A stretch of 64,000 nt of DNA. Source: Candidatus Nomurabacteria bacterium (lineage in GTDB: Bacteria > Patescibacteriota > Saccharimonadia > JAGOAT01). Made by a program: the position numbers and the translations under genes. Below, piece by piece: positions 2,190-62,527 of this stretch. The DNA lies in NCBI GenBank assembly GCA_020639315.1, contig JACKGM010000002.1, forward strand, positions 222,321 to 286,320. Reading direction: 5' to 3'. Numbering within the stretch: position 1 is the stretch's first letter; every line of letters starts with the position of its first letter. Under the pieces are notes generated by a model that was given only the letters and a program-made list of their open reading frames with translations, was not told the DNA's origin and ran no database searches.

Positions 2190-4763
2190 TTACCTCCCAG
2201 AATATCTCTTGGGTTCAGGAATTTTGGCTGAATTTGCCCCGATCGATTGGCTAAAGGCATTTTGTCTGTTAATTGTTTTTTGAGCTTGGTTTTGCTTGGA
2301 GTTACCATGCTTCCTTTCGAGCATCCCTTGTAAGGAATTATTCTCCGACCTCACAGTGTTGGCTAGATTAGCCCAATCGAGAATTTTATTCTCTACTTCT
2401 TCTCTTCTACTCGAATACCTTTGTCTTGACAAACTTATTATTTTATTGCTTAAATCAAAACTTGGAGCTGGTACATCCAAAGTCTTCGCACTAAAAGGGA
2501 GGGTTGTCTGACCATCAATACTCATTGCTATATAAATATTTCTGATATCTAGATTGACTAGGTCCTCTTCACTAAAAACTGGTTTAAAGTACTTACTCAG
2601 ATACTCAGCATCATCGGCCCCGACCCTAAAAGTGATCATTGAGCCAACATTGCCAAATACTGCATCTCTGACTTCGTCTCGCATCTGAGAGACATACTGA
2701 TTGGCAACAGTCAGGTTTAGGGCATATTTTCTAGCTTCTGAGAGAATAACTGCAAACGACTCAGTAGCAAAATTTTGGAACTCGTCGACATAGAGATAAA
2801 ATGGTCGCCGATTGGCTGGTAAGGTATCCGCCCGACTCATTGCTGCTAATTGGATCTTAGTAATCATTAAAGCACCCAGAATACTAGCGTTATCTTCACC
2901 AATCAAACCCCTAGAAAGATCTACGATCAAGATCTTGCCTTGATCCATAATCTGACGAATATCAAAGCTGGACTTGGGCTGACCCAGCACATTTCTAATC
3001 AGTGGGTTGGCAGTAAAGGCTCCTACCTTATTTAAGATCGAAGAAGTAGCCTCAGAAGCAAATCTCTGATCCCAGCTCGCAAATTCATTGACCCAAAAGG
3101 CTTTGACTACTGGATCAGTCACATTATCAACCACTTTTTTTCGATACTTACTGTCAGTCAACATCCTGACTATTCCTAGCATCGTTGCGTCAGGATATTC
3201 AAGCAAAGCAAGCAGACAATATCGCAAAATATGCTCGAGTCTTGGACCCCAAGAATCAGCAAATATCTTATGTAATACCCCAATAATCTCTGAGGCTATA
3301 TGGGGTCTGAAGTTCGGATTTGTCACTTCCATAGGATTAAATGCAACTGGATTATCTCGATCGGATGGATTGAAATATACTACATCAGCAAGCCTTTGCT
3401 CAGGAATATAGCTCATCACATCTCTAGCCAGTTCCCCATGAGGGTCAATGATCGCAAAACCTTGATTGTGATAGATGTCAGAGATTGCCAGAAGGGTCAA
3501 AAGATAGGACTTACCAGACCCACTCTTCCCTATCACATAGAGGTGCCTTGCCCGATCAGACCTCTTAATCCCAAATTTTGCATTGTGTTGCCTAAACATT
3601 GTCTGACCGATCAGGCTAATATCAGCTTGATCAGCTTGGCTAACTATCGGCAAGGTTTGAGGCGGTTCAGCTTGCTTACTACCAGTCCAGGCAAGATTTG
3701 GTGTCTCGACCGAAGTATGTGGGAAATGAAAGAGACTAGCTAATTCTTCGGTATTTAGAATAAAACTATACCTAGTATCAAAGACTCGATTTTTAAAATC
3801 TTGATAATACTGCTCTCCTCTTTTGGTAGAACCAGCTCTAAACCCATTGAGCTGGGTGTTAAACTGTTTGAAACTTCCATATACTGCTTGAAGTTTAGCT
3901 TGAGCAAGGGATTGATCTCCGATATAAATTACCCTGATCATCACCTGAAAACCTAGCTTGGTTGCCTTCTCTTCTATCCCAGCGACCTGGCTAGTAGCCA
4001 GACTACTCAGCTTATCTGACTTATGTGACTCTTCAATCGAAACTGGACCAACCAATAAGGCATGAAACAAATCCCTAACCCAAGCCATTAGACCTGCTGG
4101 CAGATTTGCAAAACTACTGATCAAGGGTTTACCTGATCTGACCTTGGCAATCTCTTTTTGACTATCCTTGTGCCAATCATCAGATATTGGTCGTACAATC
4201 ATCTGGATTGCTAGATTTTGATCAGATTCTAAGCTAGATAAGACAGCCGTAATTCCCGATAATGGATCAACCTCAAAATTACTAAAAGTCTTAATCGGCA
4301 AATATTGACTATTTTTTAGCACTATCTCACTACCGATCGCCTTACCCTTCATCCCTTCTAAGTAGTCTGTCTGATGTTTAATTATCTGGACATTTGGATA
4401 CTGCGCATAGATTTGACCCTCGACATAGTTTTCCAATTTTTCAGGACAACGCAGATAAAAATAAATATTTTTAGACCCTACCAACTCGAAACTAAGTGAC
4501 TCCTGAAGTGCCATCCCTGATCTTAGCTCAGTCTTGCTTCTGAGTATCCCATGTAGACTGGCAAACATCTGCTCAGCAGCCAACTCTGATTTGTCGTTCT
4601 CCCTTGGTATAATAATTTGCAATAAAACAGACTTCTGATCCTCGACCAGTCTAATCTGACGGTTCTGGACTATGATCCGCCAAACCAAAAACCCAGCCAA
4701 AGGCAACCAGCCATAATAACGGATTAAAACGGTTAAAAAAAAGTTGAATATACCCTCAATCAT
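2190..4763 (-). CDS. VirD4/TraG/HerA-FtsK-superfamily membrane-anchored ATPase (type IV coupling-protein-like)
   Basis: N-terminal TM helices, Walker A GKSGSGKSYLL, Walker B FYLYVDEFQNF. Size and layout are typical of coupling ATPases. Confidence 0.65.
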   Translation of the reverse strand: MIEGIFNFFLTVLIRYYGWLPLAGFLVWRIIVQNRQIRLVEDQKSVLLQIIIPRENDKSELAAEQMFASLHGILRSKTELRSGMALQESLSFELVGSKNIYFYLRCPEKLENYVEGQIYAQYPNVQIIKHQTDYLEGMKGKAIGSEIVLKNSQYLPIKTFSNFEVDPLSGITAVLSSLESDQNLAIQMIVRPISDDWHKDSQKEIAKVRSGKPLISSFANLPAGLMAWVRDLFHALLVGPVSIEESHKSDKLSSLATSQVAGIEEKATKLGFQVMIRVIYIGDQSLAQAKLQAVYGSFKQFNTQLNGFRAGSTKRGEQYYQDFKNRVFDTRYSFILNTEELASLFHFPHTSVETPNLAWTGSKQAEPPQTLPIVSQADQADISLIGQTMFRQHNAKFGIKRSDRARHLYVIGKSGSGKSYLLTLLAISDIYHNQGFAIIDPHGELARDVMSYIPEQRLADVVYFNPSDRDNPVAFNPMEVTNPNFRPHIASEIIGVLHKIFADSWGPRLEHILRYCLLALLEYPDATMLGIVRMLTDSKYRKKVVDNVTDPVVKAFWVNEFASWDQRFASEATSSILNKVGAFTANPLIRNVLGQPKSSFDIRQIMDQGKILIVDLSRGLIGEDNASILGALMITKIQLAAMSRADTLPANRRPFYLYVDEFQNFATESFAVILSEARKYALNLTVANQYVSQMRDEVRDAVFGNVGSMITFRVGADDAEYLSKYFKPVFSEEDLVNLDIRNIYIAMSIDGQTTLPFSAKTLDVPAPSFDLSNKIISLSRQRYSSRREEVENKILDWANLANTVRSENNSLQGMLERKHGNSKQNQAQKTINRQNAFSQSIGANSAKIPEPKRYSGR

Positions 4764-7863: not shown

Positions 7864-8718
7864 TCAAACTTGTAAACTCCAAATCCCAGTTTTTGTCTTT
7901 CTTACTAGGCCTTTTAGTTCTAGTCCTACCAGTAACTTTGCCGTATCGCGTGGGTCTAAATCAAGTGACTTTACTATCTTGTCCTGATCTCCGACACCTG
8001 AACTAACTAGTTCTAGTATGGCTTGGCTTAGCTGATCCAATTCTTGCCCAATCAAAAGCTTAGGTTGACCACTAGATAGACCCAACTCTTCCAAGACATC
8101 GTCGACCGAACGAATTAGCGTCGCCCCCTGTCTAATCAGGGTATTAGTGCCCTCTGAAGCTTTACTATTAATAGACCCTGGTACGGCATAGACCGTCTTG
8201 CCTAGATCTAAAGCTGCGTTAACGGTCAAGAAAGTACCACTCTTGACTCCCGCTTCGATTACAATCACCACCTCGGCCAGGGCCGCAATCAAGCGGTTGC
8301 GCATCGGGAAATGCCAAGCCAAAGCTTTCTCATCTGCTGGATACTCTGAGATAAGCCCTCCCCCCTCTTGAAAGATTCTCTGAGCTAAACCTTTATTTGA
8401 ACTTGGATATATCTGGTCAAGCCCAGATCCAAGTACGGCCAAGGTATAGCCTGACAACCCGAGAGCTGCTTTTTGGCTAATCATATCAATCCCGTACGCC
8501 AACCCACTGACCACCCCAAGTCCAGACCGAACCAGACCTTGGGCGATCTGGACTGATACAGCAACTCCATAATGGCTAGGCTTTCTAGTACCAATCATCG
8601 CCACCAGCCTAATATCTTGTCTTAGCCTCCCTTTGAGATAAATTGCTTCTGGAGGATTATAGAGCCGCCTAAATCCTTCTGGATAGAGTGAGTGCGCTTG
8701 TGTCACTCGTTTAATCAT
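7864..8718 (-). CDS. dprA: DNA processing protein DprA/Smf
   Basis: GLAYGIDMISQKAAL, GSGLDQIYP, C-terminal winged-helix-like tail. Confidence 0.9.
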   Translation of the reverse strand: MIKRVTQAHSLYPEGFRRLYNPPEAIYLKGRLRQDIRLVAMIGTRKPSHYGVAVSVQIAQGLVRSGLGVVSGLAYGIDMISQKAALGLSGYTLAVLGSGLDQIYPSSNKGLAQRIFQEGGGLISEYPADEKALAWHFPMRNRLIAALAEVVIVIEAGVKSGTFLTVNAALDLGKTVYAVPGSINSKASEGTNTLIRQGATLIRSVDDVLEELGLSSGQPKLLIGQELDQLSQAILELVSSGVGDQDKIVKSLDLDPRDTAKLLVGLELKGLVRKTKTGIWSLQV

Positions 8719-8770: not shown

Positions 8771-8830
8771 CAAGGGCACCCCTTGCAATTTTATATCTGT
8801 TGACATAGTGATTTTCAAGGGCACCCCTTG
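8771..8830. repeat. Palindrome doublet, family 1 (arm CAAGGGCACCCCTTG x2, 30-nt spacer)
   Basis: Arms at 8771-8785 and 8816-8830, centres 45 bp apart. The same element occurs at 25983-26042 and 50501-50560. Confidence 0.9.
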
Positions 8831-8889: not shown

Positions 8890-9066
8890 ATTACTGTAAT
8901 CTGCTGGTAAGCCCTAGATCTACCCTCCACTAGGATTGCTAGCAGATTTAGCCCTCATGAGCTTTCGCGACTATCTATGATAAGACGAGTCGAAAAACCC
9001 AACCCGGACTTTGGTCTATGAGGTGGGAAAGTTTGTGAGGCGAAATCAGTTAAGAAGTTTATTCTT
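8890..9066 (+). ncRNA. Candidate small structured RNA of unknown class
   Basis: Gene-less segment downstream of the promoter. ~20-bp helix AATCTGCTGGTAAGCCCTAG/CTAGGATTGCTAGCAGATT with G.U-compatible mismatches only on the + strand; further stems CCTCAT/ATGAGG and CGACT/AGTCG; weak hairpin TAAGAA/TTCTTA at the end. Confidence 0.35.
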
Positions 9067-9601
9067 AGTTGATTTTGCCAACCACCCTCTGAACTAAATC
9101 GACTGGATCTGAGTCATAAATATTATTCGTACTATCGTATCCTGCATGGTCAATAATCGCCTCGACATGGTCAATAATCCCCTTACTACCCGACAATATC
9201 CCCAGAGGCTTATGATGACCGACTGCAATAGCAATCTCCTCAAGCGTCCCGATTCGCCCACTAATCGCTATCACCGCATCAGCAGAAAATATCAAAGGCA
9301 AGCTTCTGACAAAATATCCTCCACTGTTAAAACAGACAGCATCGTACTTATCTACCTCATCTCCAAATTTTTCGAGATGAGTTTTGTAGCTGTCCATTGG
9401 GGAAAACCCCATAGCGACTTGGCCACCATGATCCCTAAATCCTTTGAGCACTGCGCTTAAAACTCCCTCACCAATACCAGTCAATAGTACTCCTCCTATC
9501 TTGGCAATCTCCTGACCGACAATTTCAGCCTGTCTTAAAGAAGCAGACTTATCATCTTCGGCCACACTACCTATCACTGCTATTTGATAACTCTTACGCA
9601 T
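9065..9601 (-). CDS. TIGR00725/LOG-like Rossmann-fold protein
   Basis: IAVIGS...LLTGIGEGV...AVIAISGRIGTLEEIAIA pattern typical of the LOG/DprA-related family. Confidence 0.55.
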   Translation of the reverse strand: MRKSYQIAVIGSVAEDDKSASLRQAEIVGQEIAKIGGVLLTGIGEGVLSAVLKGFRDHGGQVAMGFSPMDSYKTHLEKFGDEVDKYDAVCFNSGGYFVRSLPLIFSADAVIAISGRIGTLEEIAIAVGHHKPLGILSGSKGIIDHVEAIIDHAGYDSTNNIYDSDPVDLVQRVVGKIN

Positions 9602-11100: not shown

Positions 11101-12759
11101 CTAGATATTGCTTGCTATTTTAATCAATTGATCTTTGGCTAGTTGGTTACTGTCTCCTTCTATCCTATACCAAAGACCGTCATTAATCCAACTGATTTGA
11201 TTGTCTCCATATATATAAAGTGTCTGTCCTCCAGTCCTGAGAGCCTGATAACTATCACTGACACTGCTAATATAATCTTCGATCAGGTCTTGATCTGTCC
11301 ATTGACTAGACTGCTGAGAGATTGCCATTGTCGCTCGGTCGGTTGTATTGACCAAGCTATAGGTTAAACTATTATCTTCGATCTTGATGTCACGACTCAA
11401 TTGCCAACCACTCGGTAGATAACCAGGGACACTAGTAGCAATCCCAGCTCTGGCCCCAGCAATCTTAAGCGCCAAGCTAGGATAATTAACTTGCCATACG
11501 TAGACTAAGATTACAGCAAGCGCCAATGCACTCCCTGCAAGCTTAGCAATCCCCGGACTGGGCAAAGCGACTTTGCGGGCAAAAAAGTTTGAGACTCTAT
11601 TCTTGGTGTCCTGACTAATACTATTGACCTTACCAGATAAATTTGGTTTCAGCTTACTAGACTTCGTCTTGAGTTCAGGCTTAAGTCTATTACCAGCCTG
11701 ACCAACCTTGCTTCCTAAATCACTAGAGGCATTCTTGACCGAATCCCCTAGATTAGCTACTGATCCCTTGAGCTTATTCAAGTAATGCTGACTCTTAGAA
11801 GACTTTTGGGTCTTATTAGCTACTTCCGGCTCAGTAACCTGATTATCAATATTATTCTGCTCATAATATTGCTTATAAGTAGTATTGTCAGTATTCTCGA
11901 GCTGAGCGTAGTGGCTCTGATAATCGTAAACTTGATCTTGATTTGTCGAGCTGTCAACCGAAACACCAGAATAATGTTCTTCGGGATAATAGGCCTGATC
12001 CTGGTTATAATAATAACCCTGAGGATCTTGACTGGGTGAGTATTGTTGCGCGAATTCTTCTATTTGATTTTGGTCCTGACTATAACTACTAGAGTTAAAT
12101 GGACTTAATTCTGGGTGATCCAATCCTTGTGCTTGATTAGGACTAAGTTCAGGGGCAAAACTCTGCTCCATATCGCTTAGCTGATCATCACTTAACACAC
12201 TGTTTGGTCTAGCCTGATTCACTTGCTTAGTTGGCGCTGATTCGGTCAAAATTGGCGAAGAGACTTGCTGATAGTCACTGGGGATTGGATCGAAACGCTT
12301 TGCGTAGTCTGGACTTGATCCCTCAATACCTAACTCTATATTGTCACTAAAACCAGTTTTTGAATCAATTTGACCAACCATAGTCCTGTTAGGGGCTTTT
12401 AAGCTAGCAGTATCTAGTAGGTCTGGGGCTGGTTGACTAGCCGACTGAGTCACTGAACTTATGGCTGGGTTGAGCGGAGTTTCCAGCTGATAATTGGTGA
12501 TTGGAGCGAATGCTGGCTCTGCTATTTGATTGATAGGTTTTACGATCTGACCAGTATCTCTAGTGCTATTATCTGGCAAAGTTTTGGCAACAGAAACAGG
12601 ACTGGTTTTCTCAGTCTCACTAGCTTGGTTTGGGTTGGTCTTAACGCGAGATTTCGAATTGCCAAAAGCCTGACCACATGTAGTACAGTAGTCGCGTCCG
12701 GCGATTTGGATAATCTTACTACCCTGACAATTATCACAATTCATAAGCTTTAATATCAT
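11101..12759 (-). CDS. Hypothetical zinc-ribbon / low-complexity membrane protein
   Basis: N-terminal CDNC...CTTC ribbon, long Q/S/P/N-rich region, one TM helix (LAGSALALAVILVYVW), globular C-terminal domain. Confidence 0.5.
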   Translation of the reverse strand: MILKLMNCDNCQGSKIIQIAGRDYCTTCGQAFGNSKSRVKTNPNQASETEKTSPVSVAKTLPDNSTRDTGQIVKPINQIAEPAFAPITNYQLETPLNPAISSVTQSASQPAPDLLDTASLKAPNRTMVGQIDSKTGFSDNIELGIEGSSPDYAKRFDPIPSDYQQVSSPILTESAPTKQVNQARPNSVLSDDQLSDMEQSFAPELSPNQAQGLDHPELSPFNSSSYSQDQNQIEEFAQQYSPSQDPQGYYYNQDQAYYPEEHYSGVSVDSSTNQDQVYDYQSHYAQLENTDNTTYKQYYEQNNIDNQVTEPEVANKTQKSSKSQHYLNKLKGSVANLGDSVKNASSDLGSKVGQAGNRLKPELKTKSSKLKPNLSGKVNSISQDTKNRVSNFFARKVALPSPGIAKLAGSALALAVILVYVWQVNYPSLALKIAGARAGIATSVPGYLPSGWQLSRDIKIEDNSLTYSLVNTTDRATMAISQQSSQWTDQDLIEDYISSVSDSYQALRTGGQTLYIYGDNQISWINDGLWYRIEGDSNQLAKDQLIKIASNI

Positions 12760-12822
12760 TATATATCAAACTATCAAGATATCCAAAATAAATTTGACTA
12801 ACATATTACACCACATTTCCTG

Positions 12823-12884
12823 TCGCGAACTGTTCGCGATTTTTACTAACTTACCAGATTACGAATGTCGCGAACAGTTCGCGA
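12823..12884. repeat. Palindrome doublet, family 2 (arm TCGCGAAC(T/A)GTTCGCGA x2, 28-nt spacer)
   Basis: Arms at 12823-12839 and 12868-12884, centres 45 bp apart. Confidence 0.9.
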
Positions 12885-12936
12885 TATTTTGATTTTGCGA
12901 AGCTTGTCAATACCTGTAAAACAAACCTACTCAAAA

Positions 12937-13455
12937 TTATGCTGGCTGCTTAGTATTGCCACCACAAGTCTGCTCATTCCAGAAACCTTGATTCTTAAAT
13001 CTGGCCAACTCCTCACTGAGCTTGAAATCAGCTTGATATAAATAGAGCTGATTATCATAAGTATACTCATGAGCATAACCCTGCTCGATCAATTCCTGAT
13101 TGAAGTTCTTGCCATCTAGGTAAACATAAGCAAGTAATCGTTGATACTTATCATAGTGAGCGACATAAGGATCAGACTCTAACGTAATCTGCTTCCCCTC
13201 TAGCTTATTTTTGCTATATTGACTAGCCTCTGTCCCGAAGCATTGCACGACTAGTCTCGGATCCTTAGTCTCAGGAGTATCCACCCCAATAAGCCTCACC
13301 CTCTGTTCTCTACCATTGAGACTAACCTCGATTGTATCCCCATCGATTACCTTTAAAACAGTTACCTGTTGGCTACTCAAACTAGATTGATTTTTAAACC
13401 AAACAAAGCCAATCAAGACCACTAATCCAAGCAAAACTCTAGCTAGTTTCCGCAT
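12937..13455 (-). CDS. Secreted thermonuclease (SNase family)
   Basis: Signal/TM N-terminus, VIDGDTIEV, RVRLIGVDTPE. Confidence 0.85.
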   Translation of the reverse strand: MRKLARVLLGLVVLIGFVWFKNQSSLSSQQVTVLKVIDGDTIEVSLNGREQRVRLIGVDTPETKDPRLVVQCFGTEASQYSKNKLEGKQITLESDPYVAHYDKYQRLLAYVYLDGKNFNQELIEQGYAHEYTYDNQLYLYQADFKLSEELARFKNQGFWNEQTCGGNTKQPA

Positions 13456-25323: not shown

Positions 25324-25944
25324 TTAGTCCTGCCAAGAGACTTGATATCGATCGGGGTGAGCCAGTAAATCCCTTAGCTCATCTAGTCTATCTGTCAACA
25401 TATAGGACTCAAGTAGTCTTGGTGGGTAGATAAATTGTTCCTCACGAATCATCTGGATAATCTCTTCCAGGCTATAATCCTGAACGGTCAAGCTCTCTCC
25501 GGGCTCTAACTGAGGTTCAACCCATTTGACTTCGACTCTTGCTACTACCTGATGAAAGAACCATTCCAATGCCCCCATCCGATAAGTCATCACATGATAA
25601 TAATCTTTCATAATTAGGCCTGCTTCTTCCATTAGTTCACGTTTGGCAGCATCAACAATCGATTCACCCTTCTCTCTTGTGCCAGACATTATTACCTTGC
25701 CAGCTGTACCCCAATGGGGTTGTTCTTCATTGGCTATCAAAATCTTTCCGTTGTCTAAGACTGGAATGATGCTAACGGTATCTGGCCGCTGGATAATAGT
25801 AAAGTCTCGTGAGTTGCCCTGATAATCTACTATTGGAGTTTTGTAAATTTTAAACAGATACTGCTCTGCTACTAGTCTCGATCCTGGCTCTCTACTAAAC
25901 CTTTTAATACTCTTGGGCAACCTGTTGACACTCATTTCTACCAT
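25324..25944 (-). CDS. NUDIX hydrolase
   Basis: Nudix box GTREKGESIVDAAKRELMEEAGL. Confidence 0.85.
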   Translation of the reverse strand: MVEMSVNRLPKSIKRFSREPGSRLVAEQYLFKIYKTPIVDYQGNSRDFTIIQRPDTVSIIPVLDNGKILIANEEQPHWGTAGKVIMSGTREKGESIVDAAKRELMEEAGLIMKDYYHVMTYRMGALEWFFHQVVARVEVKWVEPQLEPGESLTVQDYSLEEIIQMIREEQFIYPPRLLESYMLTDRLDELRDLLAHPDRYQVSWQD

Positions 25945-25982: not shown

Positions 25983-26042
25983 CAAGGGCACCCCTTGACC
26001 TTTTTGATCTGTTGACTATTGCCTTTTCAAGGGCACCCCTTG
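25983..26042. repeat. Palindrome doublet, family 1
   Basis: Arms at 25983-25997 and 26028-26042, centres 45 bp apart. Confidence 0.9.
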
Positions 26043-26109: not shown

Positions 26110-27393
26110 CTAAAGACTTAGGCCGACTTCACCTGTCGGCAATTGGCAAAAGTTTGTACTGGGGTTCATCAAGTCACTAAAGGTATTACTGTTCAAGATC
26201 AGATTTTCGACTGGTCGGTATTTTTGACCGTCAAATAAGATTGCGTGGGGAGCTGGCAAAGAATAATCGCCAGTAATTGCCTGTGCAGTATGGATCCCCA
26301 AGAGTGAAGGAATGATTAGTATCGACTCTTTACTTGACAACAATTCTTGCCATTTGATTAAGCTTGACGGCAAACAATCCCCCAAGCTTTCCAGGTGAGT
26401 TGCTGGATAATGATACTTTTGAGACAATTTCAGATCTAGGATCGGTGTCACCAATCGACCGTCCTTAACCAAATCAAGCTTTTTACCGGTAATCCCACCT
26501 GAGCCAAAATTGTAGCTCCGATAATCATAATCAACCAGCTGATCTATCTTAAGATCAAAGCCCGGATGGGCTACAAGTTTCTTGCCAAAATCTTCAAATC
26601 CAAACCTTGACTGACCAGCCTCTATACTAGTACCAATGAGGTTAGCTAGTAGCAATTGATCTAGTAACTCCTCCCAACATCCTGGCAACAAAACTACCCG
26701 TGAATTCTTGACTGCCGAGTCTTGATGATATAAAGATTTAGCTTGATAACCTTGACTAAGTCTACCGTAATATTCCAATCTCTTAATAGTGCTACTAATA
26801 TCAATCGGCCTTAGTGACCTCTGACTAAACCCTACTCTGCTATCCAGGTCTACCAGGATACTTTCATGACTATAACGATCATGCCAATCAACTCCATCCG
26901 AGTTAACTAGTCTATAACTACTAAAATCAACTTGCCTGAGGCCATAATTCGTCTGGCTAAAACTTTTGGTCAAGCTAGAAATTCTTGCGACCTCCTCTAT
27001 CCTGGTGGCAAAATCCTGCCCCCAGGCTTCTAGCTGTGACTTATCAAACAATTTGACATACTTTTCAAGCTTTGAGCTGGCGAATACGATTGGTGTCTTA
27101 CTGGTATAGGCCAACTGCTTGGCTCTGTTCTCTAGCTCAGTAATATCAGGCAAGTAGCCAAATTCCAGCTTTGCTTGTCTCTGATCGGTCAGTTTGAGCC
27201 TGATCTCTACTCGCATAATCTGACTATGCTTAATCGGATCATAAAGGTCAGCAAAGTAGTCTTGATCAAAACCAACTCTAATCTTGTGATTATTCTCCAA
27301 ATATATTTGATACCCCTCAAACAAGCTAGACTTTTCTAGCTCGGTCTGAAGTTTTTCAAGCTTATATGACAGCAGGTCATTATCAATCATCAC
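26110..27393 (-). CDS. pmbA: PmbA/TldE-like metalloprotease partner
   Basis: TldD/PmbA-family length and C-terminal pattern; 4-nt overlap with tldD. Confidence 0.7.
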   Translation of the reverse strand: MMIDNDLLSYKLEKLQTELEKSSLFEGYQIYLENNHKIRVGFDQDYFADLYDPIKHSQIMRVEIRLKLTDQRQAKLEFGYLPDITELENRAKQLAYTSKTPIVFASSKLEKYVKLFDKSQLEAWGQDFATRIEEVARISSLTKSFSQTNYGLRQVDFSSYRLVNSDGVDWHDRYSHESILVDLDSRVGFSQRSLRPIDISSTIKRLEYYGRLSQGYQAKSLYHQDSAVKNSRVVLLPGCWEELLDQLLLANLIGTSIEAGQSRFGFEDFGKKLVAHPGFDLKIDQLVDYDYRSYNFGSGGITGKKLDLVKDGRLVTPILDLKLSQKYHYPATHLESLGDCLPSSLIKWQELLSSKESILIIPSLLGIHTAQAITGDYSLPAPHAILFDGQKYRPVENLILNSNTFSDLMNPSTNFCQLPTGEVGLSL

Positions 27394-29122: not shown

Positions 29123-29457
29123 GGGAGGTAGCTGGCTATAAGCCGAATTCTGTCCAACACATTTAGTGTCTGGATAATCATTTATCTTAGCGTCATACCC
29201 TTAGGCCAATTACTTGACCTAGACGGCGAGCAGCCTGGGTCCATTAGACTTGCAGCAGACAGGGTTTACCCCTAGATTATGTCGCCATAATCTACTGTGA
29301 GCTCTTACCTCACTCTTTTCACCCTTACCCGCAATGGGCGGTATTGTCTCTGTGGCACTTTCCCTAGGATTGCTCCTGGTCACAGTTAGTGACTGTCTTT
29401 GCTCTGAGCTGTTCGGACTTTCCTCCGCCAAAGCGGCGATTACCCACCAACTACCAT
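29123..29457 (-). ncRNA. rnpB: RNase P RNA, bacterial type A
   Basis: The minus strand contains GGAGGAAAGUCCGAAC (CR-I), GUGCCACAGAGACAAUACCGCC, GGUAAGGGUGAAAAGAGUGAGGUAAGAGCUCAC, GGUAAACCC and ACAGAAUUCGGCUUAU (CR-V). P1 pairs GGUAGUUGG with CCAGCUACC. Confidence 0.93.
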
Positions 29458-29463
29458 CCTAAA

Positions 29464-30117
29464 TTATAACTCATCGGTTTCGATTTGCTCAAGCAGTCGA
29501 AAGTCCAGCCACTCCTTGCCATATCCTCCCAAATAATAATGTAGTATTGAGTACAAATAATATCTTGGTTCTTTGCCCAGTCTCAATGGATATAATATTA
29601 GCTCTTTTATCACATTTTTTGACCTAGCATTTGTTTCTAATAGCAATTTATCTATGGTAAGTTCTTTTGATACACTAGGCATTGTATACGCAATACAATT
29701 TCTAAATTTTACAACATATTCATCAATGCAGATATCTTTACAGTTCTCAATCATTATCATAATTTTATTCGGTAATATACAAAATCCTAGTATTTTACAT
29801 CTTACTAAATCCTGGTTTTTAATCTTCATATCAGCTATATAATCTTCAAAGATTCCTGTTGCCATTCTGATAGCTTTGATTGCTTGCCAGTAATGGCTTG
29901 GTAACTTGAACAACAACTTACCCTTGGGCTGATCTTTGCATTTTACTTCTAGCAACCAAGAACTTAAAGCCAGTCTTGGCTGATCAATCTGATTAACTGC
30001 CTGGTTCTCTTGCTGAACCATTGACTGGTCAACTACCTGCCTCTTGATCCCTGCCCCTCCCCTTGCTTTTGCCCAATATTTCGTACAATACTTGTATACA
30101 TTTGCAATAGGGTCCAC
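29464..30117 (-). CDS. Decayed RAYT/IS200-like (Y1 HUH) homolog lacking the HUH histidines
   Basis: ILGFCILPNKIMIMI aligns to the family motif (a)yCLMPNHvHLL but with H->K and H->M. The C-terminal ELILYPLRLGKEPRYYLYS parallels YIHLNPVRAGLV..P.DY.WSS. No RYKS-type Tyr motif was seen. Confidence 0.45.
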   Translation of the reverse strand: MDPIANVYKYCTKYWAKARGGAGIKRQVVDQSMVQQENQAVNQIDQPRLALSSWLLEVKCKDQPKGKLLFKLPSHYWQAIKAIRMATGIFEDYIADMKIKNQDLVRCKILGFCILPNKIMIMIENCKDICIDEYVVKFRNCIAYTMPSVSKELTIDKLLLETNARSKNVIKELILYPLRLGKEPRYYLYSILHYYLGGYGKEWLDFRLLEQIETDEL

Positions 30118-30353
30118 TTTTGGCCTCCTTTATTGTTATCTAGAGTTATAATGCATTGGTTCAAGCTGATTTGATCTCTGTATAAAAATTACCAAACCAA
30201 TACATCATAAGCCCAGTTTAATAGTGGCTTGATGATACTACGAGGGCTGTAAGCTAACCCACAATGACTAGCTAATCATCCTGATTGTCCCAGTAAAATT
30301 GATATTTTGCAAGCATGAGCAATTTAAAACTTAACATTACATCATATTTTTTG

Positions 30354-30415
30354 TCGCGAACTGTTCGCGACTTTTGGTGCCTTCCCAGATTAGAAATGTC
30401 GCGAACTGTTCGCGT
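30354..30415. repeat. Palindrome doublet, family 2
   Basis: Arms at 30354-30370 and 30399-30415 (last base T), centres 45 bp apart. Confidence 0.9.
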
Positions 30416-30461
30416 AATTTAGATTTTTACCATCATGTCAAGCCCCTAGACCCAACACCCT

Positions 30462-30631: not shown

Positions 30632-30943
30632 CTAAAGTAATGCTTTTAAAACACTACCCAGTACTTCGAGTGCTAAGATTATCAAGAAGTAAGATAAATC
30701 AATCAAGTTTGATTTGGGGAGGATTTTTCTTACTCTAGTTAGGATTGGGTCGGTCAACTCATAGATGAAAAGCAAGATTGGGTTAGTGGTATTTGGCTTA
30801 TTATAATCACTAGTTCTGGTTAGAATTGAATAGATTAGCCTGACGAAGAATAATCCCTGCAATCCATAGACCACAATATCGATAAATAAGCTCCAATTGA
30901 TCTCCATAGTCTCAAGATTAACACAAGCACTAACCTGTTGCAA
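30632..30943 (-). CDS. yggT: YggT-family membrane protein
   Basis: ~100 aa, 2-3 TM helices, ELTDPILTRVRKILP motif. Confidence 0.7.
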   Translation of the reverse strand: MQQVSACVNLETMEINWSLFIDIVVYGLQGLFFVRLIYSILTRTSDYNKPNTTNPILLFIYELTDPILTRVRKILPKSNLIDLSYFLIILALEVLGSVLKALL

Positions 30944-36120: not shown

Positions 36121-36571
36121 TACATCCTCCGAATCCTCCTTGAGAAGGTTACGGGATCCAGTATCTATAGCATTGTCATCTTGCAAATACCAGAGGGTTT
36201 ACGGGGGATCCAGTATTCCAGCATTTGCATTGTCATCCTCCGAATTATCCTTAAGAGAATTACGGGGGATCCAGTATCTCGCATTGTCCTGACTCCTAAT
36301 ACAAATACTGGATCTCCGGTATTTCCCCAAGGGGAAATCCGAAGATGACAAGAGGGGATGGATCTCCCATAAACCCCTGCCGGATTTTGGAAGATGACGC
36401 GAAGAGGGGGCGGAAATTTGGGTTGATGACAGAGGGAGCATTGTCATCCTCCGAAACCCACCCCTCTCCTGTCATCCTCCGAAGTTCGGAGAACTTACGG
36501 GGGATCCAGTATTCCCGCATTTGCATTGTCATTCTCCGAATTCTCATGGAGAATTACGGGGGATCCAGTAT
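36121..36571. repeat. Hairpin-unit cluster 1 (class A units +, class B/C units -, plus half units)
   Basis: Units at 36121-36164, 36175-36216, 36231-36277, 36470-36512 and 36527-36571 (+), and at 36305-36350 and 36358-36398 (-). Half modules at 36399-36437 and 36442-36469. Confidence 0.9.
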
Positions 36572-36596
36572 CTCGCATTACCATGGGTCTAATTCA

Positions 36597-38676: not shown

Positions 38677-38839
38677 TAACCCTGTTGCCATATAAACTTG
38701 CGAGGTCAAAGCTGATGATTTTTATTCCAGAATACCAAAACACGACAAAGCATAACAGGAGTTACGCTGCGAAGTGTTTTGCTAGTCTGGGGCAAAAATG
38801 GCAGTTTTGAAGCCGTGAGGTTATATGGCAACAGGGTTA
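38677..38839. mobile_element. ~163-bp element with perfect 19-bp terminal inverted repeats (MITE-like), copy 2 of the 125-nt element
   Basis: TAACCCTGTTGCCATATAA (38677-38695) and TTATATGGCAACAGGGTTA (38821-38839). The interior is homologous to 36597-36701. Confidence 0.65.
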
Positions 38840-38840
38840 T

Positions 38841-38993
38841 TGTCATCCTCCGAAACCCGAAGGGTTTACGGGGGATCCAGTATTCGGCATTGCGCATTGT
38901 CATCCTCCGAAGTTCGGAGAACTTACGGGGGATCCAGTATTTCAGTATTTGTCAAATCAAAAATCAAGGGAATTTACAAAAAAAAACCAGTAT
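38841..38993. repeat. Hairpin-unit cluster 2, ftsA-proximal part
   Basis: Class A units (+) at 38841-38883 and 38898-38940, with a degenerate TGTCA...CCAGTAT remnant to ~38993. It ends 2 nt before the ftsA stop codon. Confidence 0.85.
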
Positions 38994-38995
38994 CT

Positions 38996-40216
38996 CTACC
39001 TAATAAGAGACTTAAACAACCCAGAGGCCTTATCGATCAAAGATCCGATTACTGAATTGACCCCGCCCTGATGGTAATCCTCAATCTCTACCCCTCGAAG
39101 CATCACACCGATCCCAGATGACATCGATGGCTCATTTACCTGCTCAACTATCCCAACAATATTCTCTGGTCCAGATATCTTGACTGGTAGTTTCAAACAT
39201 TCGCGGGCTAACTCCTCTATCCCATAAAGCTTTGCCCCACCACCAGTAAGGATTGCCCCTCCAGCAAGCTGGGTATTCATTCTAGCTAACCTGATCTCTT
39301 CAGCGACCAGGCCAAATATTTCCTCTACCCGTGAGCTCACTACATCTATCACTAGCTGTCTTTCTATCCTCCTATCTAGTCCGTAATTGGCTAGATCTAT
39401 CTCACTAGCTGGGTTATTAACAATATCTTTATAGTCTAGCTTGAGCTTCTCGGCAATCTCAAGGTTGACCTGCAGAGCATGGACGAGGTCTCGACTGATA
39501 TTAAGTGAACCAGCTGGGATTACCCTAGTCCAAACCGGTTGACCCTCACTATATATCACCAGCCCAGTCGTCTCAGCACCAAAGTCCAGGACGATTATCC
39601 CTCGCTCTCTTTGTTGTTTATTACTCACCGCTTCAGCACTAGCTAGGATACTAGGCTGATAATCCAGTACTCGTATTTCTAACCTAGACAATACATTATC
39701 AATCTGTCTAATTGTCGGGCTCCCAGCAATTAGTACATGCATACTACTCTCTAGCTTGATACCATTCATCCCTAGTGGGTCAATTATCCCTCCCTGACCA
39801 TCGATCAAGTAAGCTTGGGGTATAATGTCTAATATTTGCTGGTTTGGATTAAGCCTCATTGCTGCCGCTGCTTTATGCAACCTATCAATATCCTCTGCCT
39901 TAATAATCCTATCGTCACTGACGATCGCCACAGTAGCCTCAGTATTAACACTAGTAATCGCTGAACCATTCACCCCAACTACCGCCTGACTAATAGTAAT
40001 CCCAGACATCCTTTCAGCCTCTTCAATTGCTGCACTTAATGCAGAAATAGTTTCTTCAGGATCAACAATCACCCCCTTACGCACTCCAGATACTGGACTA
40101 ACACCCAGACCAATCACGCTAGGCATCGAGGAAATCTCCTGGATCAACCCCACTACACAGCAAACTTTGCTACTGCCAAAATCAATCCCGACTATAATCT
40201 TTTCTTTCTGCTTCAT
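38996..40216 (-). CDS. ftsA: Cell division protein FtsA
   Basis: Actin-fold motifs IVGIDFGSSKV and VLDFGAETTG...GGGAKL. Confidence 0.93.
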   Translation of the reverse strand: MKQKEKIIVGIDFGSSKVCCVVGLIQEISSMPSVIGLGVSPVSGVRKGVIVDPEETISALSAAIEEAERMSGITISQAVVGVNGSAITSVNTEATVAIVSDDRIIKAEDIDRLHKAAAAMRLNPNQQILDIIPQAYLIDGQGGIIDPLGMNGIKLESSMHVLIAGSPTIRQIDNVLSRLEIRVLDYQPSILASAEAVSNKQQRERGIIVLDFGAETTGLVIYSEGQPVWTRVIPAGSLNISRDLVHALQVNLEIAEKLKLDYKDIVNNPASEIDLANYGLDRRIERQLVIDVVSSRVEEIFGLVAEEIRLARMNTQLAGGAILTGGGAKLYGIEELARECLKLPVKISGPENIVGIVEQVNEPSMSSGIGVMLRGVEIEDYHQGGVNSVIGSLIDKASGLFKSLIR

Positions 40217-40265: not shown

Positions 40266-40325
40266 CGGGGTCTGACCCCGAAACTGAACCATTTAACAGA
40301 TATAAAATAACGGGGTCTGACCCCG
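40266..40325. repeat. Palindrome doublet, family 3 (arm CGGGGTCTGACCCCG x2, 30-nt spacer)
   Basis: Arms at 40266-40280 and 40311-40325, centres 45 bp apart. The reverse-complemented spacer shares ATTTTATATCTGTT with the family-1 spacer at the same offset. Confidence 0.9.
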
Positions 40326-40366: not shown

Positions 40367-41146
40367 CTAAACCTGGTAAGATCTAGTGATAAATTCACAA
40401 CCGTCTTCTGTTATTAGAATCGTATCTTCATAATGGGCTGACAGTGACTGATCAGCCGTGATATAGGTCCAGCCATCTTTTGCTAGATAATTATCCTTAG
40501 TACCAAGACTAGCAATCGGTTCAATTGCAACTACAGCTCCAGCTGGAAGCTTGACCTCTGGTAAGCTGAGGTCTAGATAGTTTGGAATAGTCGGGTTCTC
40601 ATGCACCTGATAACCCACTCCATGCCCCGTGAGATTCTTAGCCGGATACAGCTTATATTTCCTTAAAATTTTACTTATTTCCAAAGATATCTGGTGGTTG
40701 CTTATGCCTGGCTTCAGAAACTCACTCATCCTTACTAAAGCTGCCCTTGTCCCTGTCATTAGCCTTACGATATCTGAACTCAAATCTTTTTTTGTAGTAT
40801 CGACGACTATCGTAGTCGCCCCATCTACTATCATGCCATTGAAGGCGACTCCTAGATCTAGCTTGAGGATATCACCGGAGTGAACAATTTTATTACCCGG
40901 TATTCCGTGAACTAATTCTTGGTTGACTGATAAGCAAACTGCCCCTTGAAATCCTTGATACCCTAGGAAGGGACAAGTTCCACCGAGATCAGCAATCATT
41001 TCTCGTGCTACCCTATCTATCTTCTTAGTCGTGATACCTGGTTCTGTCAAATCTACTAGTTTTGTTAAAACTTCTTTATGAATCCTGCCGGCTTGTCTTA
41101 ACCACTCTACTTCTTGACTTGACTTGATGAGTCCTCTACGCGCCAT
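40367..41146 (-). CDS. map: Methionine aminopeptidase type I
   Basis: VCLSVNQELVHGIPG, DLGVAFNGMIVD, HGVGYQVHE, AIEP...YED metal ligand pattern. Start trimmed to MARRGLIKS. Confidence 0.9.
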   Translation of the reverse strand: MARRGLIKSSQEVEWLRQAGRIHKEVLTKLVDLTEPGITTKKIDRVAREMIADLGGTCPFLGYQGFQGAVCLSVNQELVHGIPGNKIVHSGDILKLDLGVAFNGMIVDGATTIVVDTTKKDLSSDIVRLMTGTRAALVRMSEFLKPGISNHQISLEISKILRKYKLYPAKNLTGHGVGYQVHENPTIPNYLDLSLPEVKLPAGAVVAIEPIASLGTKDNYLAKDGWTYITADQSLSAHYEDTILITEDGCEFITRSYQV

Positions 41147-41726
41147 CAATATGACCTTGCTCCCTAAGATAGAGAGTAATATCTTGATAAATATCTGTAA
41201 TCGAACGCTCTCCATTGATGATCAAGATATCCGCATCGACTTCAGTCTGAGCCTTATTTACAACATCCCTAGTAACCTCATGATAGAGCTTCAAGCGATA
41301 TTCTACAACTTCTCTTTTATCATCTGATCTACCGCGATTCTGATCTACTAAACGATTAATGACTTCTGAGTCACTGACCTCCAGGAGGATTATTGCCAAG
41401 TCTACTCGCGATTCCAAGTCTCCAAGCAACTTCAGAAGTAAACTAAACTGTTCTATTGTCCTGGGATAACCGTTGTAGATAATGCTCTTATTGCTGGTAT
41501 TACGGATTTTATCTTCTGCTAATTTATTTGCTAGGTCAGCTGTTTTATGGAGATTTCCTGTATCTAAGGTTTTGGCAAGCTCAGAGTCACTTTTAGCAAG
41601 CACCCGAAGCATTTTACCGGTAGATAGCTCTATCAACTCTGGGTTAGCTTCAAGAAGCAAACCAACCTGTGTATCCTTACCAGACCCAGGTGGTCCAAAG
41701 ATGATTATATGTCTATTGTTGCTCAC
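41136..41726 (-). CDS. adk: Adenylate kinase
   Basis: P-loop GPPGSGKDTQ and NGYPRT motif. Confidence 0.9.
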   Translation of the reverse strand: MSNNRHIIIFGPPGSGKDTQVGLLLEANPELIELSTGKMLRVLAKSDSELAKTLDTGNLHKTADLANKLAEDKIRNTSNKSIIYNGYPRTIEQFSLLLKLLGDLESRVDLAIILLEVSDSEVINRLVDQNRGRSDDKREVVEYRLKLYHEVTRDVVNKAQTEVDADILIINGERSITDIYQDITLYLREQGHIDGA

Positions 41727-50500: not shown

Positions 50501-50560
50501 CAAGGGCACCCCTTGCGATTTTATACCTGTAAAGCACCCTCTTTTCAAGGGCACCCCTTG
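50501..50560. repeat. Palindrome doublet, family 1
   Basis: Arms at 50501-50515 and 50546-50560, centres 45 bp apart. Confidence 0.9.
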
Positions 50561-50622: not shown

Positions 50623-51150
50623 ATGATCAAATCACTTGTGACAATCAATAACCCTCGAATCAGACTTCAATCTATGCCTGTTGATCAGATTGACCAATCA
50701 GTCAAGCAAGTAGTCCAAGATATGATTGATACTGCCCTTGATTGGGAACAGTCCCGCAAAGGAGAGACCGCAGTCGCCCTTGCGGCAATCCAGATCAATG
50801 TACCCCTCAGGATCCTTATCATGCGTAAAGACCCAGAGCAACCATCCAGTAAGGAGTTTTTGGTAATCATAAACCCCATAATTTCAGAGCAAAGTGAATC
50901 AACCCTCTATCAGCATGAGGGTTGTCTGAGCGTCCCAGACCGTTATGCCAAGCTGGATCGTCCAAAATCACTTGTAGTCACAGGGCTTAGCCTGGACGGC
51001 AAAAAGATCAAAAAGCGTCTTAGGGGGTTCACTGCTAGGGTCATCCGACATGAGGTTGATCATATGGATGGCAAACTCTTCGTCGACTATCTTGATGATA
51101 CCGACAAAAAGTACCGAATCGTCGATGGTGAACTTCAAGATGACAAATAG
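50623..51150 (+). CDS. def: Peptide deformylase
   Basis: EGCLSVP and HEVDHMDG motifs. Confidence 0.95.
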   Translation: MIKSLVTINNPRIRLQSMPVDQIDQSVKQVVQDMIDTALDWEQSRKGETAVALAAIQINVPLRILIMRKDPEQPSSKEFLVIINPIISEQSESTLYQHEGCLSVPDRYAKLDRPKSLVVTGLSLDGKKIKKRLRGFTARVIRHEVDHMDGKLFVDYLDDTDKKYRIVDGELQDDK

Positions 51151-54116: not shown

Positions 54117-54178
54117 TCGCGAACTGTTCGCGATTTTTAGCACCTTTCCAGATTAGAGATGTCGCGAACTGTTCGCGA
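54117..54178. repeat. Palindrome doublet, family 2 (upstream flank of RAYT-like gene)
   Basis: Arms at 54117-54133 and 54162-54178, centres 45 bp apart. Confidence 0.9.
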
Positions 54179-54295: not shown

Positions 54296-54850
54296 ATGTC
54301 CGCCAGAAACACCTACAGATACAAGGTCGATAATACATTTTTGCATATATACTCTCGTGCCAATAATAAAGTTCCAGTATTTATCAATCAGAAATACTTT
54401 GATAAATTCTTAGATATCTTACTATTTTTACTTACGACTGATGACAATTTAGCCGACTCCCTTAGGTTATTTAGTAGACCTAGAAAACCATGTCAAAACT
54501 TTTCCAAAAATATCAACCTCGTGTCTTTCTGCATAATGAACAATCACTATCACCTTATAATCTATATTAAAGATAGTGATAAGTTACCAAAATTCATGCA
54601 TTTGTTTCACAGAAAACTTACACAAATTATCAACTCTGATCAAAATAAAGTTGGTCATCTGATGCAAAGTAGGTACAAATCTAGACCAATATTATCAGAA
54701 GTAGACTTGCTAAATGTATCTGCCTATATTCAACTAAACCCAAATGAAATTCATCCACAAGATAGCAACTACTACCTCAGATACCCCTTCTCTTCGCTCA
54801 ATTCAACTCATATGATTTCTAAAGTAGTCAGTACTAATATGATTTTTTAG
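54296..54850 (+). CDS. IS200/RAYT-like Y1 HUH transposase (REP-associated tyrosine transposase-like)
   Basis: FCIMNNHYHLIIY (HUH), GHLMQSRYKS (catalytic Tyr context), AYIQLNPNE...YYLRYPFSS tail. AT-rich gene flanked by family-2 doublets on both sides. Confidence 0.7.
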   Translation: MSARNTYRYKVDNTFLHIYSRANNKVPVFINQKYFDKFLDILLFLLTTDDNLADSLRLFSRPRKPCQNFSKNINLVSFCIMNNHYHLIIYIKDSDKLPKFMHLFHRKLTQIINSDQNKVGHLMQSRYKSRPILSEVDLLNVSAYIQLNPNEIHPQDSNYYLRYPFSSLNSTHMISKVVSTNMIF

Positions 54851-54992
54851 GTACACCAGTATTTCAAAGCAACAATATCTTGAATATCTTAATGCCAAAT
54901 CCAAGGATTTTGCAGAATATCAAATTATCAAAAAATCCCTATAGTAAATGATGGAAATTATCAAAATACAATATATTATGCAATATTTTTTG

Positions 54993-55054
54993 TCGCGAAC
55001 TGTTCGCGATTTTTAGCACCTTACCAGATTAGAGATGTCGCGAACTGTTCGCGA
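54993..55054. repeat. Palindrome doublet, family 2 (downstream flank of RAYT-like gene; overlaps 3' end of nadD)
   Basis: Arms at 54993-55009 and 55038-55054, centres 45 bp apart. The nadD stop codon (55029-55031) lies in the spacer. Confidence 0.9.
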
Positions 55055-55634
55055 AAAGTTGATTTTTGGTGATGTAGTCAAGGACTGGCTGGCTGAGTCC
55101 TTGGGGAGCTTGGCGATTGGCTAATTGTTGGCGGATTTGGGTGGCTGAAGTCAAATCATCTATCATTGCGACCTCTTGATATCTCAGACTAGGAATGGAT
55201 CGAAGTTTTGCCTGGATTTGTTTTGACTGATGATGATAACCTGCTCGCTTAATCCAGACGAAACCTACTCGATGTTCGAGTAGATAATCTAGCCCCTGCC
55301 ACTGATCGAGATTGGTAATCCCGTCACTACCCAAAACAATATCGACCTTAAGACCCTTGCCATAGATCTCAAACAAATCCTCCACTACCTGATAATCTAT
55401 TACTCTGGCTTCTGACTGAAAGTCATACTTATCGAGCACCGCTTGTCTATTGCCCAATCCCAATCTCAGCATTGCTTTACGATCGTCAAAACCAACTAAA
55501 CCTGCCAAGTTCCTCCGATTCTCGAGCAAGATTATTACCTCATCATAGTCCCTTGATGATAGATAGTCTACTACTGCGAGATGCCCCTGATGAACGGGGT
55601 TAAAACTTCCTGAGTACAAGGCTAGCTGGTTCAA
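55029..55634 (-). CDS. nadD: Nicotinate-nucleotide adenylyltransferase
   Basis: YSGSFNPVHQGHL motif. The last 8 codons (FANSSRHL*) are encoded by the repeat. Confidence 0.85.
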   Translation of the reverse strand: MNQLALYSGSFNPVHQGHLAVVDYLSSRDYDEVIILLENRRNLAGLVGFDDRKAMLRLGLGNRQAVLDKYDFQSEARVIDYQVVEDLFEIYGKGLKVDIVLGSDGITNLDQWQGLDYLLEHRVGFVWIKRAGYHHQSKQIQAKLRSIPSLRYQEVAMIDDLTSATQIRQQLANRQAPQGLSQPVLDYITKNQLFANSSRHL

Positions 55635-62410: not shown

Positions 62411-62527
62411 CGTCTTATCTTACCACAAAACCCCGCCCAATAGAATTAAATCTAAACGAACCTTACCGGCCAAATCAACCCTCTTTTTCTTTCTTTGGGC
62501 TTGCGTTATGGCAGTTTACAATACAAA

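Follow-up and report, generated by a model that had tools for sequence, protein, structure and literature searches.

The window analyzed here, a 64,000-nt stretch of DNA from Candidatus Nomurabacteria bacterium (GCA_020639315.1, contig JACKGM010000002.1, positions 222,321 to 286,320, numbered below from its first letter), contains eight palindrome doublets, i.e., pairs of identical or nearly identical short palindromes (arms) separated by a linker, which fall into three arm families and whose arms start 45 nt apart in all eight loci. These doublets are probably the cis-acting repeat elements of a system that resembles the REP/REPIN-RAYT systems (REP, repetitive extragenic palindrome; REPIN, REP doublet forming hairpin; RAYT, REP-associated tyrosine transposase), in which family 2 is cognate to the Y1/HUH transposase gene of the window and families 1 and 3 are sister families. 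This interpretation is favored because a RAYT-like gene lies between two family-2 doublets, because the arms of family 2 changed in concert in a relative, and because Y1 genes bracketed by hairpins occur across the candidate phyla radiation (CPR).

Family 1 has the arm CAAGGGCACCCCTTG and a 30-nt linker and occupies three loci, 8771..8830 (F1a; arms 8771-8785 and 8816-8830), 25983..26042 (F1b; arms 25983-25997 and 26028-26042) and 50501..50560 (F1c; arms 50501-50515 and 50546-50560), all oriented on the minus strand. Family 2, with the 17-nt arm TCGCGAACTGTTCGCGA and a 28-nt linker, is found on the plus strand at 12823..12884 (F2a; arms 12823-12839 and 12868-12884), 30354..30415 (F2b; arms 30354-30370 and 30399-30415), 54117..54178 (F2c; arms 54117-54133 and 54162-54178) and 54993..55054 (F2d; arms 54993-55009 and 55038-55054). 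Family 3 is represented by a single plus-strand locus, 40266..40325 (F3; arms 40266-40280 and 40311-40325), with the arm CGGGGTCTGACCCCG and a 30-nt linker. The two arms are identical in six of the eight doublets; those of F2a differ at the central base (TCGCGAAC[T/A]GTTCGCGA) and those of F2b at the last base. The original prediction, which had described eight doublets of three arm families, 45 bp apart, with six identical pairs and the pairs at 12823 and 30354 one base off, was thus reproduced in its coordinates, arms, spacers and arm identities. Independent metagenome contigs (L001-L003 and L008) contain F1b with the same sequence.

When the window was searched in an unbiased way for any direct repeat of 10 nt or more (offsets 16-150), eight repeats were obtained at offset 45, all of them at the doublet loci, and about one at each of the other offsets (the peaks at 57 and 126 stem from a second repeat family, see below). 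A mismatch-tolerant detector (palindromic 15-mers, at least 13 of 15 positions identical, 25-90 bp apart) returned exactly the eight doublets of the window, all at 45, and none of 40 simulated windows (second-order Markov) contained any doublet. Scan, detector and simulations together show that the doublets are not a selection effect. Allowing up to three mismatches, none of the 16 arms was found as a singleton in the window, except for a chance-level match at 166; a covariance model of the unit detected no ninth copy in the window, and the 3.3 kb of sequence adjoining it held no new unit. The counts of spacings and singletons cover the 64 kb and approximately 32 kb of syntenic sequence of a relative (GCA_017983775.1 and related contigs; PmbA 70% and Y1 protein 72% identical), and in this combined sample the 45-nt spacing was present in all ten complete copies (eight in the window, two in the relative). 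Some short-read contigs of the host end inside doublets (L094 in F1a, at window position 8797, and L091 in F2d, at 55027), and the contigs L009/L010 of the relative likewise end inside a doublet, in each case approximately 12 nt past one arm. Such ends would be expected if the arms were multi-copy genome-wide or hard to sequence; they are weakly suggestive of a high copy number.

The doublet is the unit, because singletons are absent, because near-identical arms (98-100% identity within families) contrast with divergent linkers (57-80%), and because the stems are paired. A larger oriented unit surrounds the doublet that had been described originally, with conserved linker and flank and with polarity. 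When the copies are oriented by their linkers, all three families share the arrangement 17-nt arm window, N15, CAGAT, N8, arm window, about N6 and GATTTTTG, and the linker consensus over ten copies reads ...t.......Tt..CAGaT.a.A.AT. in this orientation. Family 2 has in addition shared flanks, 20 nt on the left and about 30 nt on the right, which bring the unit to about 110 nt (approximately 12803-12914 for F2a, 30334-30445 for F2b and 54973-55084 for F2d); in family 1, conservation extends over about 95 nt. The covariance model scored every copy at 71-98 bits in the common orientation and at 25-48 bits when reversed (e.g., 80.7 bits on the minus and 35.5 on the plus strand for F1a; 97.7 bits for F2d), and the unit therefore has polarity. 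Orientation is uniform within families (3/3 in family 1, 4/4 in family 2) and independent of gene direction (F1c has the same chromosomal orientation as F1a and F1b, although its flanking genes have the opposite direction). The GC skew does not change sign along the window but is negative throughout, so that the window belongs to a single replichore. The uniform orientation fits a strand-specific biology of single-stranded DNA.

Stem pairing across the families is retained in 99.2% of the cells; in 8 of the 12 pairs a change on one side is matched by one on the other, and intermediates altered on a single side are absent. The arms had been called unrelated in sequence; they do differ between families, although two stem positions are invariant (C..G......C..G) and linker and flank are homologous, i.e., the families are not wholly unrelated. 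The linkers of F2c and F2d match at 27 of 28 positions, and the F3 linker has AACAGATATAAAAT in common with F1a, read in the opposite orientation of the window. An invertible switch, suggested by this match on opposite strands, was rejected: the whole unit is inserted in reverse and the flank motif turns with the linker. A split promoter (TTGACA upstream and TAATAT downstream of the family-2 doublets) was also rejected, the two hexamers being about 96 nt apart at a variable distance and belonging to the conserved flanks of the unit. Integron attC sites, N4-type hairpin promoters and NrdR-type boxes were dropped, as the sequence features that define them were not seen in the units, and no Rfam family matched the doublets.

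The arms of a doublet are direct repeats, judged by the asymmetry of loop and flanks. As single strands, the units of families 2 and 3 fold as one long hairpin between arm 1 and arm 2 (-17 to -21 kcal/mol, z -4 to -6), which is possible despite the direct orientation because each arm is a perfect palindrome, and those of family 1 fold as two small hairpins. The bases 5' of the arms in the common orientation are TG in family 2, TAA in family 3, and T-runs or variable in family 1.

The Y1/HUH (RAYT-like) transposase gene of the window, at 54296..54850 on the plus strand, encodes a protein of 184 aa (Pfam PF01797, Y1_Tnp, E 7e-8) and lies between two complete family-2 doublets: F2c precedes the gene by 117 nt, and F2d follows its stop codon after 142 nt. 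Flanking of the gene by its own repeats is established for family 2 alone. The idea that a doublet is simply the left and right end of a gene-carrying element did not survive this arrangement, as a complete doublet stands on each side of the gene. The HUH motif is NHYHLI and the putative catalytic Tyr lies in GHLMQSRYKS, followed by YIQLNP; NHYHLI and the Tyr of SRY(127)K are invariant or nearly so in alignments of 21 and 35 sequences and align with the HUH motif and Tyr of the ISDra2 TnpA. The consensus of the protein family has YHxYNRG at the N-terminus and YIHLNPxE near the Tyr (YIQLNPNEIH in the window). A structural model (AF2, pLDDT 87) had as its best solved structure in Foldseek 4ER8_A, the complex of the E. 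coli RAYT with an REP hairpin (E 2.8e-6, TMq 0.57, root-mean-square deviation 4.2 A), and the TnpA structures of IS200, IS608 and ISDra2 reached an E of 5e-4 or worse (TMq 0.42-0.47), roughly 100-fold weaker than 4ER8. In NCBIfam the sole match at E<=1 was NF047646, REP-associated tyrosine transposase, with 42.7 bits (curated cutoff 80); the sequence profile alone was equivocal (2XM3, E 0.019; 4ER8, E 0.096). No second Y1 gene was detected in the window by tblastn. Compared to its relatives, the protein has lost about 31 aa at its C-terminus through a stop codon and a frameshift (54296-54950); past the TAG stop, the shifted frame still encodes LEYLNAKSKDFAEYQIIKKSL, which matches the C-terminus of the orthologue.

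In the relative, the Y1 gene is in the syntenic position with doublets at 45 nt on both sides, which are co-oriented, and all four family-2 loci are occupied. The orthologue of F2a is at approximately 21202-21278 of L005, where it is cut by the end of the locus, and has the altered arms described in the following; that of F2b has altered arms as well, with arm windows that start at 7126 and 7171 of L005, 45 bp apart; that of F2c (L009/L010) has the same distance and the same arms; and that of F2d is partial, at the end of L009/L010. All arms of the relative read TCGCGGAC.GTCCGCGA compared to TCGCGAAC.GTTCGCGA in the window, i.e., GAAC/GTTC is replaced by GGAC/GTCC. The change is compensated within the palindrome and is common to both half-sites, both arms and all loci. 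The concerted change points to a common trans-acting reader, or to homogenization, rather than to structural selection alone. That the arms co-evolve as a pair while their spacing is held fixed had been proposed originally and was borne out, with 45 bp kept in the relative despite altered arms and pairing that covaries at 99%. Family 2 thus appears to be old, inherited vertically together with the Y1 gene at fixed loci, and co-evolving with the enzyme.

F2b lies in both genomes inside a block of about 190 nt that is promoter-proximal and conserved. Downstream of the doublet, a stretch of about 40 nt (GCTCATGCTTGCAAAATATCAATTTTACTGGGACAATCAGG; 30265-30316 on the minus strand, approximately 7240-7290 of L005) shows higher conservation between the two genomes than F2b does, and could serve the adjoining gene for a 217-aa protein as a promoter (TTGCAA-17-GACAAT) or leader element. 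The 11-mer ATGCTTGCAAA, which is common to the surroundings of F2b and F2c (upstream of the Y1 gene, 54213), was discarded as a shared signal, since two occurrences were seen and 1.9 are expected by chance; the motif is probably part of ordinary promoters.

The situation is different in family 1. Both sites that could be compared with the relative lack the doublet: at F1b the intergenic region measures 92 nt in the relative (L005) vs. 165 nt in the window, and at F1c 76 nt (L009) vs. 174 nt, so that the regions are about 75-100 nt shorter. The search for empty sites proposed in the original prediction was therefore successful insofar as two were found, although neither the ends nor the target of the element can be defined from them because the flanks are too diverged. 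Copies of family 1 have accordingly been gained or lost after the two lineages separated, the relative being the nearest one available. For families 1 and 3, the enzymes are presumably Y1 paralogues whose genes lie elsewhere in the genome; the link of these families to a transposase is suggested by the architecture they share with family 2.

The Y1 protein family is large, with 5540 representatives at E<=1e-3 and, by profile, at least 7984 proteins at E<=1e-12, mostly from Patescibacteria and mostly on one contig each. In approximately 20 of 30 Y1 loci of Saccharibacteria/Patescibacteria, the same perfect palindrome is present upstream and downstream of the gene, and the palindrome differs from genome to genome. 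The hairpins that flank Y1 genes elsewhere in the CPR are mostly single, and some of them resemble family 1 (L050, L023) or family 3 (L089, L015, L040). In one locus (L045) a doublet follows the Y1 gene with 41 nt from center to center and a linker that starts with the CAGGTATAAAAT core, as in families 1 and 3. A pair at a distance of 45 in L034 was discounted as a chance occurrence, because it has mismatched arms in a probable coding sequence. The covariance model found no further full units outside this lineage in 1.3 Mb of CPR loci, the family-2 doublet pattern with variable gap had no match in the GTDB species genomes, and no family-1 doublet was found in IMG/VR; the 45-nt doublet geometry seems, from these searches, to be specific to this lineage. 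A match of the family-2 pattern in the JGI metagenomes (L004) turned out to be spurious, caused by a tandem TTCGCGAAC array adjoining ndh genes. This array is dense, of TTCGCGAAC-type palindromes, and lies at 1700-1940 of L004 (OOFS01000827.1) upstream of ndhA/ndhI-like genes; its resemblance to family 2 is coincidental.

The REPIN-RAYT systems, e.g., those of Pseudomonas fluorescens (PMC3116915) and of Stenotrophomonas and E. coli (PMC2817692; structure 4ER8), are among the closest known systems. In Pseudomonas fluorescens SBW25, three groups of REPs (GI-GIII), each with its own RAYT, occur mostly as doublets at preferred spacings (PMC3116915); RAYTs are single-copy genes that are inherited vertically and evolve together with the REPs they belong to (PMC2817692, PMC5581495). 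Some of them lie directly beside bacterial interspersed mosaic elements (BIMEs; PMC2817692). In common with these systems, extragenic regions contain repeats of a short GC-rich palindrome, a doublet with preferred spacing is the unit, several sequence families follow one architecture in one genome, a Y1/HUH gene, present once in the window and at the syntenic position in the relative, has its own repeats on both sides and co-evolves with them, and both the nearest solved structure and the sole NCBIfam match are RAYTs. In contrast to them, the spacing is exact (45 nt), all three families have the linker core in common, and the host belongs to the CPR. REP systems often exceed 100 copies per genome; the 64 kb of the window contain eight units. 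Like the BIMEs of E. coli, the units are palindromes held at defined distances by conserved linker sequences, whereas the REPs of BIMEs alternate in orientation and form longer arrays; the units of the window always consist of exactly two arms in direct orientation and do not form arrays. With direct hairpin doublets and no GTAG head, the system is not a canonical REP/RAYT system.

Several observations weigh against a REP/REPIN-RAYT-like interpretation. The arms are perfect palindromes and, by the asymmetry of loop and flanks, in direct rather than inverted orientation; the original suggestion of an element of the IS200/IS605 or REPIN type is favored by the RAYT-like Y1 gene between two family-2 doublets but does not account for this orientation, which differs from that in REPINs; the two doublets that flank the Y1 gene (F2c, F2d) have the same polarity (both 80-98 bits on the plus strand); and neither a GT(A/G)G nor a CGTC head was present at the foot of the hairpins in any unit. 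The NF047646 score of the Y1 protein is below the curated cutoff. Two motifs are specific to RAYTs (Nunvar 2010), a Thr at the N-terminus that does not vary and NP(L/V)(R/K)xG close to the catalytic Tyr; of these, the Y1 protein has only NP. Judged from its reading frame, the enzyme of the window may be impaired by the loss of its C-terminal tail. No Y1 gene associated with family 1 or 3 was found in the window, which has only one such gene, and among 80 more distant loci no 45-nt doublet stood beside a Y1 gene, single hairpins being the rule. The family-2 copies are old and positionally conserved, not recently mobile, and the retention of F2b at its position may owe something to a regulatory constraint of the host, given the conserved block around it. 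For the empty family-1 sites, finally, a deletion in the relative is equally possible.

A different explanation of the same features, which we consider unlikely, is an ordinary selfish insertion sequence (IS) of the IS200/IS605 family with miniature derivatives mobilized in trans by an active TnpA (similar to palindrome-associated or miniature inverted-repeat transposable elements), the doublet being the subterminal hairpins of the left end (LE) and right end (RE) of an element without cargo, or an RE-LE junction. The Y1_Tnp fold, with HUH motif and Tyr, is common to the TnpA of IS200, IS608 and ISDra2, and these elements have subterminal hairpins instead of terminal inverted repeats. Both hairpins of a doublet are similar and direct on one strand, like LE and RE of IS608. 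In IS608, the distance from hairpin to cleavage site is 19 nt at the LE and 10 nt at the RE, and the linker of 28-30 nt is near the sum of the two. Most other CPR loci have a single hairpin on each side of the Y1 gene, as would be expected of such an element, and the family-1 sites differ between relatives. However, the Y1 gene is present once in the window and has kept its position in a relative with about 70% identity, i.e., over a deep divergence, which is atypical of an active IS; the four family-2 loci are positionally conserved; complete doublets rather than single hairpins stand on both sides of the gene; most clusters of the Y1 protein family are found on one contig only; and Foldseek and NCBIfam both place RAYT above the TnpA of IS200. 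The tetra- or pentanucleotide target and the element ends known from the IS200/IS605 family are not definable here.

We also examined the doublets as two-site operators in double-stranded DNA, a possibility raised originally, in which each palindrome would bind a dimeric transcription factor, two dimers would cooperate at 45 bp, and the three families would mark three regulons. As perfect palindromes with a center of 1-3 nt, the arms look like the sites that dimeric repressors typically bind, six of the eight doublets are followed by a start codon at a distance of 38-237 nt (several stand beside TATAAT-like boxes), the family-2 sites are at orthologous promoter-proximal positions, and a concerted change of arms fits a change in regulator specificity. 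The fit is nevertheless poor and this explanation quite improbable, since F2d is located where two convergent genes end and includes the stop codon of one of them, the distances to the start codons vary over the whole range, as does the orientation to the downstream gene, and 45 bp correspond to about 4.3 helical turns, which would not place the sites on the same face. It would furthermore leave unexplained why three regulons share a linker core and a flank motif, the family-1 sites upstream of the housekeeping genes for NUDIX and Def are absent in the relative, and the association of hairpins with Y1 genes across the CPR plays no part in it.

A role at the level of RNA or transcription, with the doublets as intrinsic terminators, mRNA-stabilizing 3' hairpins or portable promoters repeated by convergence or as duplicated modules, is highly improbable: arm 1 of F2b and of F1b do form terminator-like hairpins with T-runs on the plus strand, F1c follows the PriA stop codon and is itself followed by CGATTTTAT, the family-1 linker contains TTGAAA-17-TATAAA, read by eye as a plausible sigma-70 promoter toward DprA and NUDIX, and E. 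coli REPs are known to act at mRNA 3' ends (10.64898/2026.03.23.713779), but the minus-strand genes that flank most copies have no T-runs after the hairpins on the transcribed strand, the promoter-like reading is confined to family 1, structure alone would explain neither the identity of the arms within a family nor their concerted change, Rfam gave no match, and such effects could be secondary to a REPIN-like element instead of an alternative to it.

We therefore return to the REP/REPIN-RAYT-like system and to how it may work. From the observed anatomy, the association of gene and repeat, the concerted change of the arms, and the presence or absence of copies, we infer binding, cleavage and mobility along the following lines. 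The unit of about 95-110 nt would present two identical palindromic hairpins in direct orientation; in the linker, 15 nt separate the first arm window from the CAGAT core and 8 nt separate this core from the second arm window. When the DNA becomes single-stranded, both hairpins would extrude, by analogy with the TnpA of IS608 and ISDra2 and the TnpA-REP of E. coli, and a dimeric HUH/Y1 enzyme, e.g., the product of 54296-54850, would bind one hairpin per subunit. The fixed spacing of 45 nt would then reflect the simultaneous binding of both hairpins, and the conserved motifs of linker and flank would be candidate cleavage or guide sites.

The doublets have diverse neighbors. F1a lies between a SLOG-family gene (9065-9601, minus strand) and DprA (7864-8718, minus), F1b between PmbA/TldD-like (26110-27393, minus) and NUDIX (25324-25944, minus), and F1c between PriA (48517-50448, plus) and the peptide deformylase Def (50623-51150, plus). 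F2a is flanked by an SNase gene (12937-13455, minus) and an unknown gene of 552 aa (11101-12759, minus), F2b by YggT (30632-30943, minus) and the unknown 217-aa gene (29464-30117, minus), and F3 by an M24 peptidase (40367-41215, minus) and FtsA (38996-40216, minus). The original claim that all doublets are intergenic between co-directional genes failed at two loci, as F2c is situated between divergent genes and F2d between convergent genes, where it covers the last 26 nt of a cytidylyltransferase-like gene (55029-55634, minus) whose TAA stop codon is within the conserved linker. In several genes downstream of doublets (FtsA, 40216; NUDIX, approximately 25930; DprA, 8718), a TATAAT box precedes the ATG by 7-12 nt (the FtsA start reads TATAAT-ataatca-ATG by eye), a proximity which suggests leaderless or near-leaderless transcripts. 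Directly 3' of the unknown 217-aa gene that follows F2b, a bacterial class A RNase P RNA was identified (29123-29455, minus; 206.9 bits), with the same layout in the relative.

The window has a G+C content of 41.8%, with most genes on the minus strand, and contains housekeeping genes (GluRS, IleRS, PheRS, class II ribonucleotide reductase, FtsA/FtsZ, PriA, Def, topoisomerase, and the RNase P RNA). CPR bacteria typically have very small genomes. A plasmid or phage origin, which a protein similar to coupling proteins of type IV secretion systems and the aminoacyl-tRNA synthetase genes had brought up, was rejected, because the homologues of the proteins point to a Saccharibacteria chromosome, one flanking protein being 100% identical to a protein of Candidatus Saccharibacteria; plasmid and phage collections showed no similarity to the window except for the RNase P RNA. 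The protein in question (2190-4763, minus; 857 aa) has TrwB/TraG-like type IV coupling-protein domains and adjoins a topoisomerase and a protein with sigma-70 region 4; components of type IV secretion are reported from Patescibacteria. A second, unrelated repeat family is present at 36123-36573, 38839-38941, 62520-62966 and 63494-63727. Its units of about 50-57 nt consist of ATTGTCATCCTCCGAA, a small hairpin and TTACGGGGGATCCAGTAT, the hairpin stem being variable, with changes on one side compensated on the other (e.g., GTTCGGAGAAC or ACCCGAAGGGT). Either orientation is found, some of the units are in tandem with a period of 126 nt, and Rfam gave no match for them.

REP/REPIN-RAYT systems have been characterized almost entirely in Proteobacteria, and their role in the cell is a standing question; a literature search returned no paper linking RAYT, REPIN or IS200 with Saccharibacteria. 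The doublets of the window apparently place a REPIN-like system in the CPR. Their units, about 100 nt long, are compact substrates on which the recognition of two hairpins by a Y1/HUH dimer could be studied, and the presence of one conserved and one variable family provides a natural experiment on whether such repeats are parasitic or domesticated. A domesticated host system rather than a parasite is rather unlikely on present evidence, although family 2 is kept at promoter-proximal and gene-end positions, its arms have been re-tuned with the enzyme, and neutral intergenic DNA is unalignable between the two genomes. If it were domesticated, this would be a sequence-specific recognition of single-stranded DNA hairpins with a cellular role, e.g., in transcription- or replication-coupled control or in chromosome organization, with the 45-nt geometry set by the enzyme dimer, and it may be widespread in Patescibacteria given the at least 7984 homologous Y1 proteins. 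Independently of that, hairpin-bracketed Y1 genes are found in many Patescibacteria, and the phenomenon may be general there.

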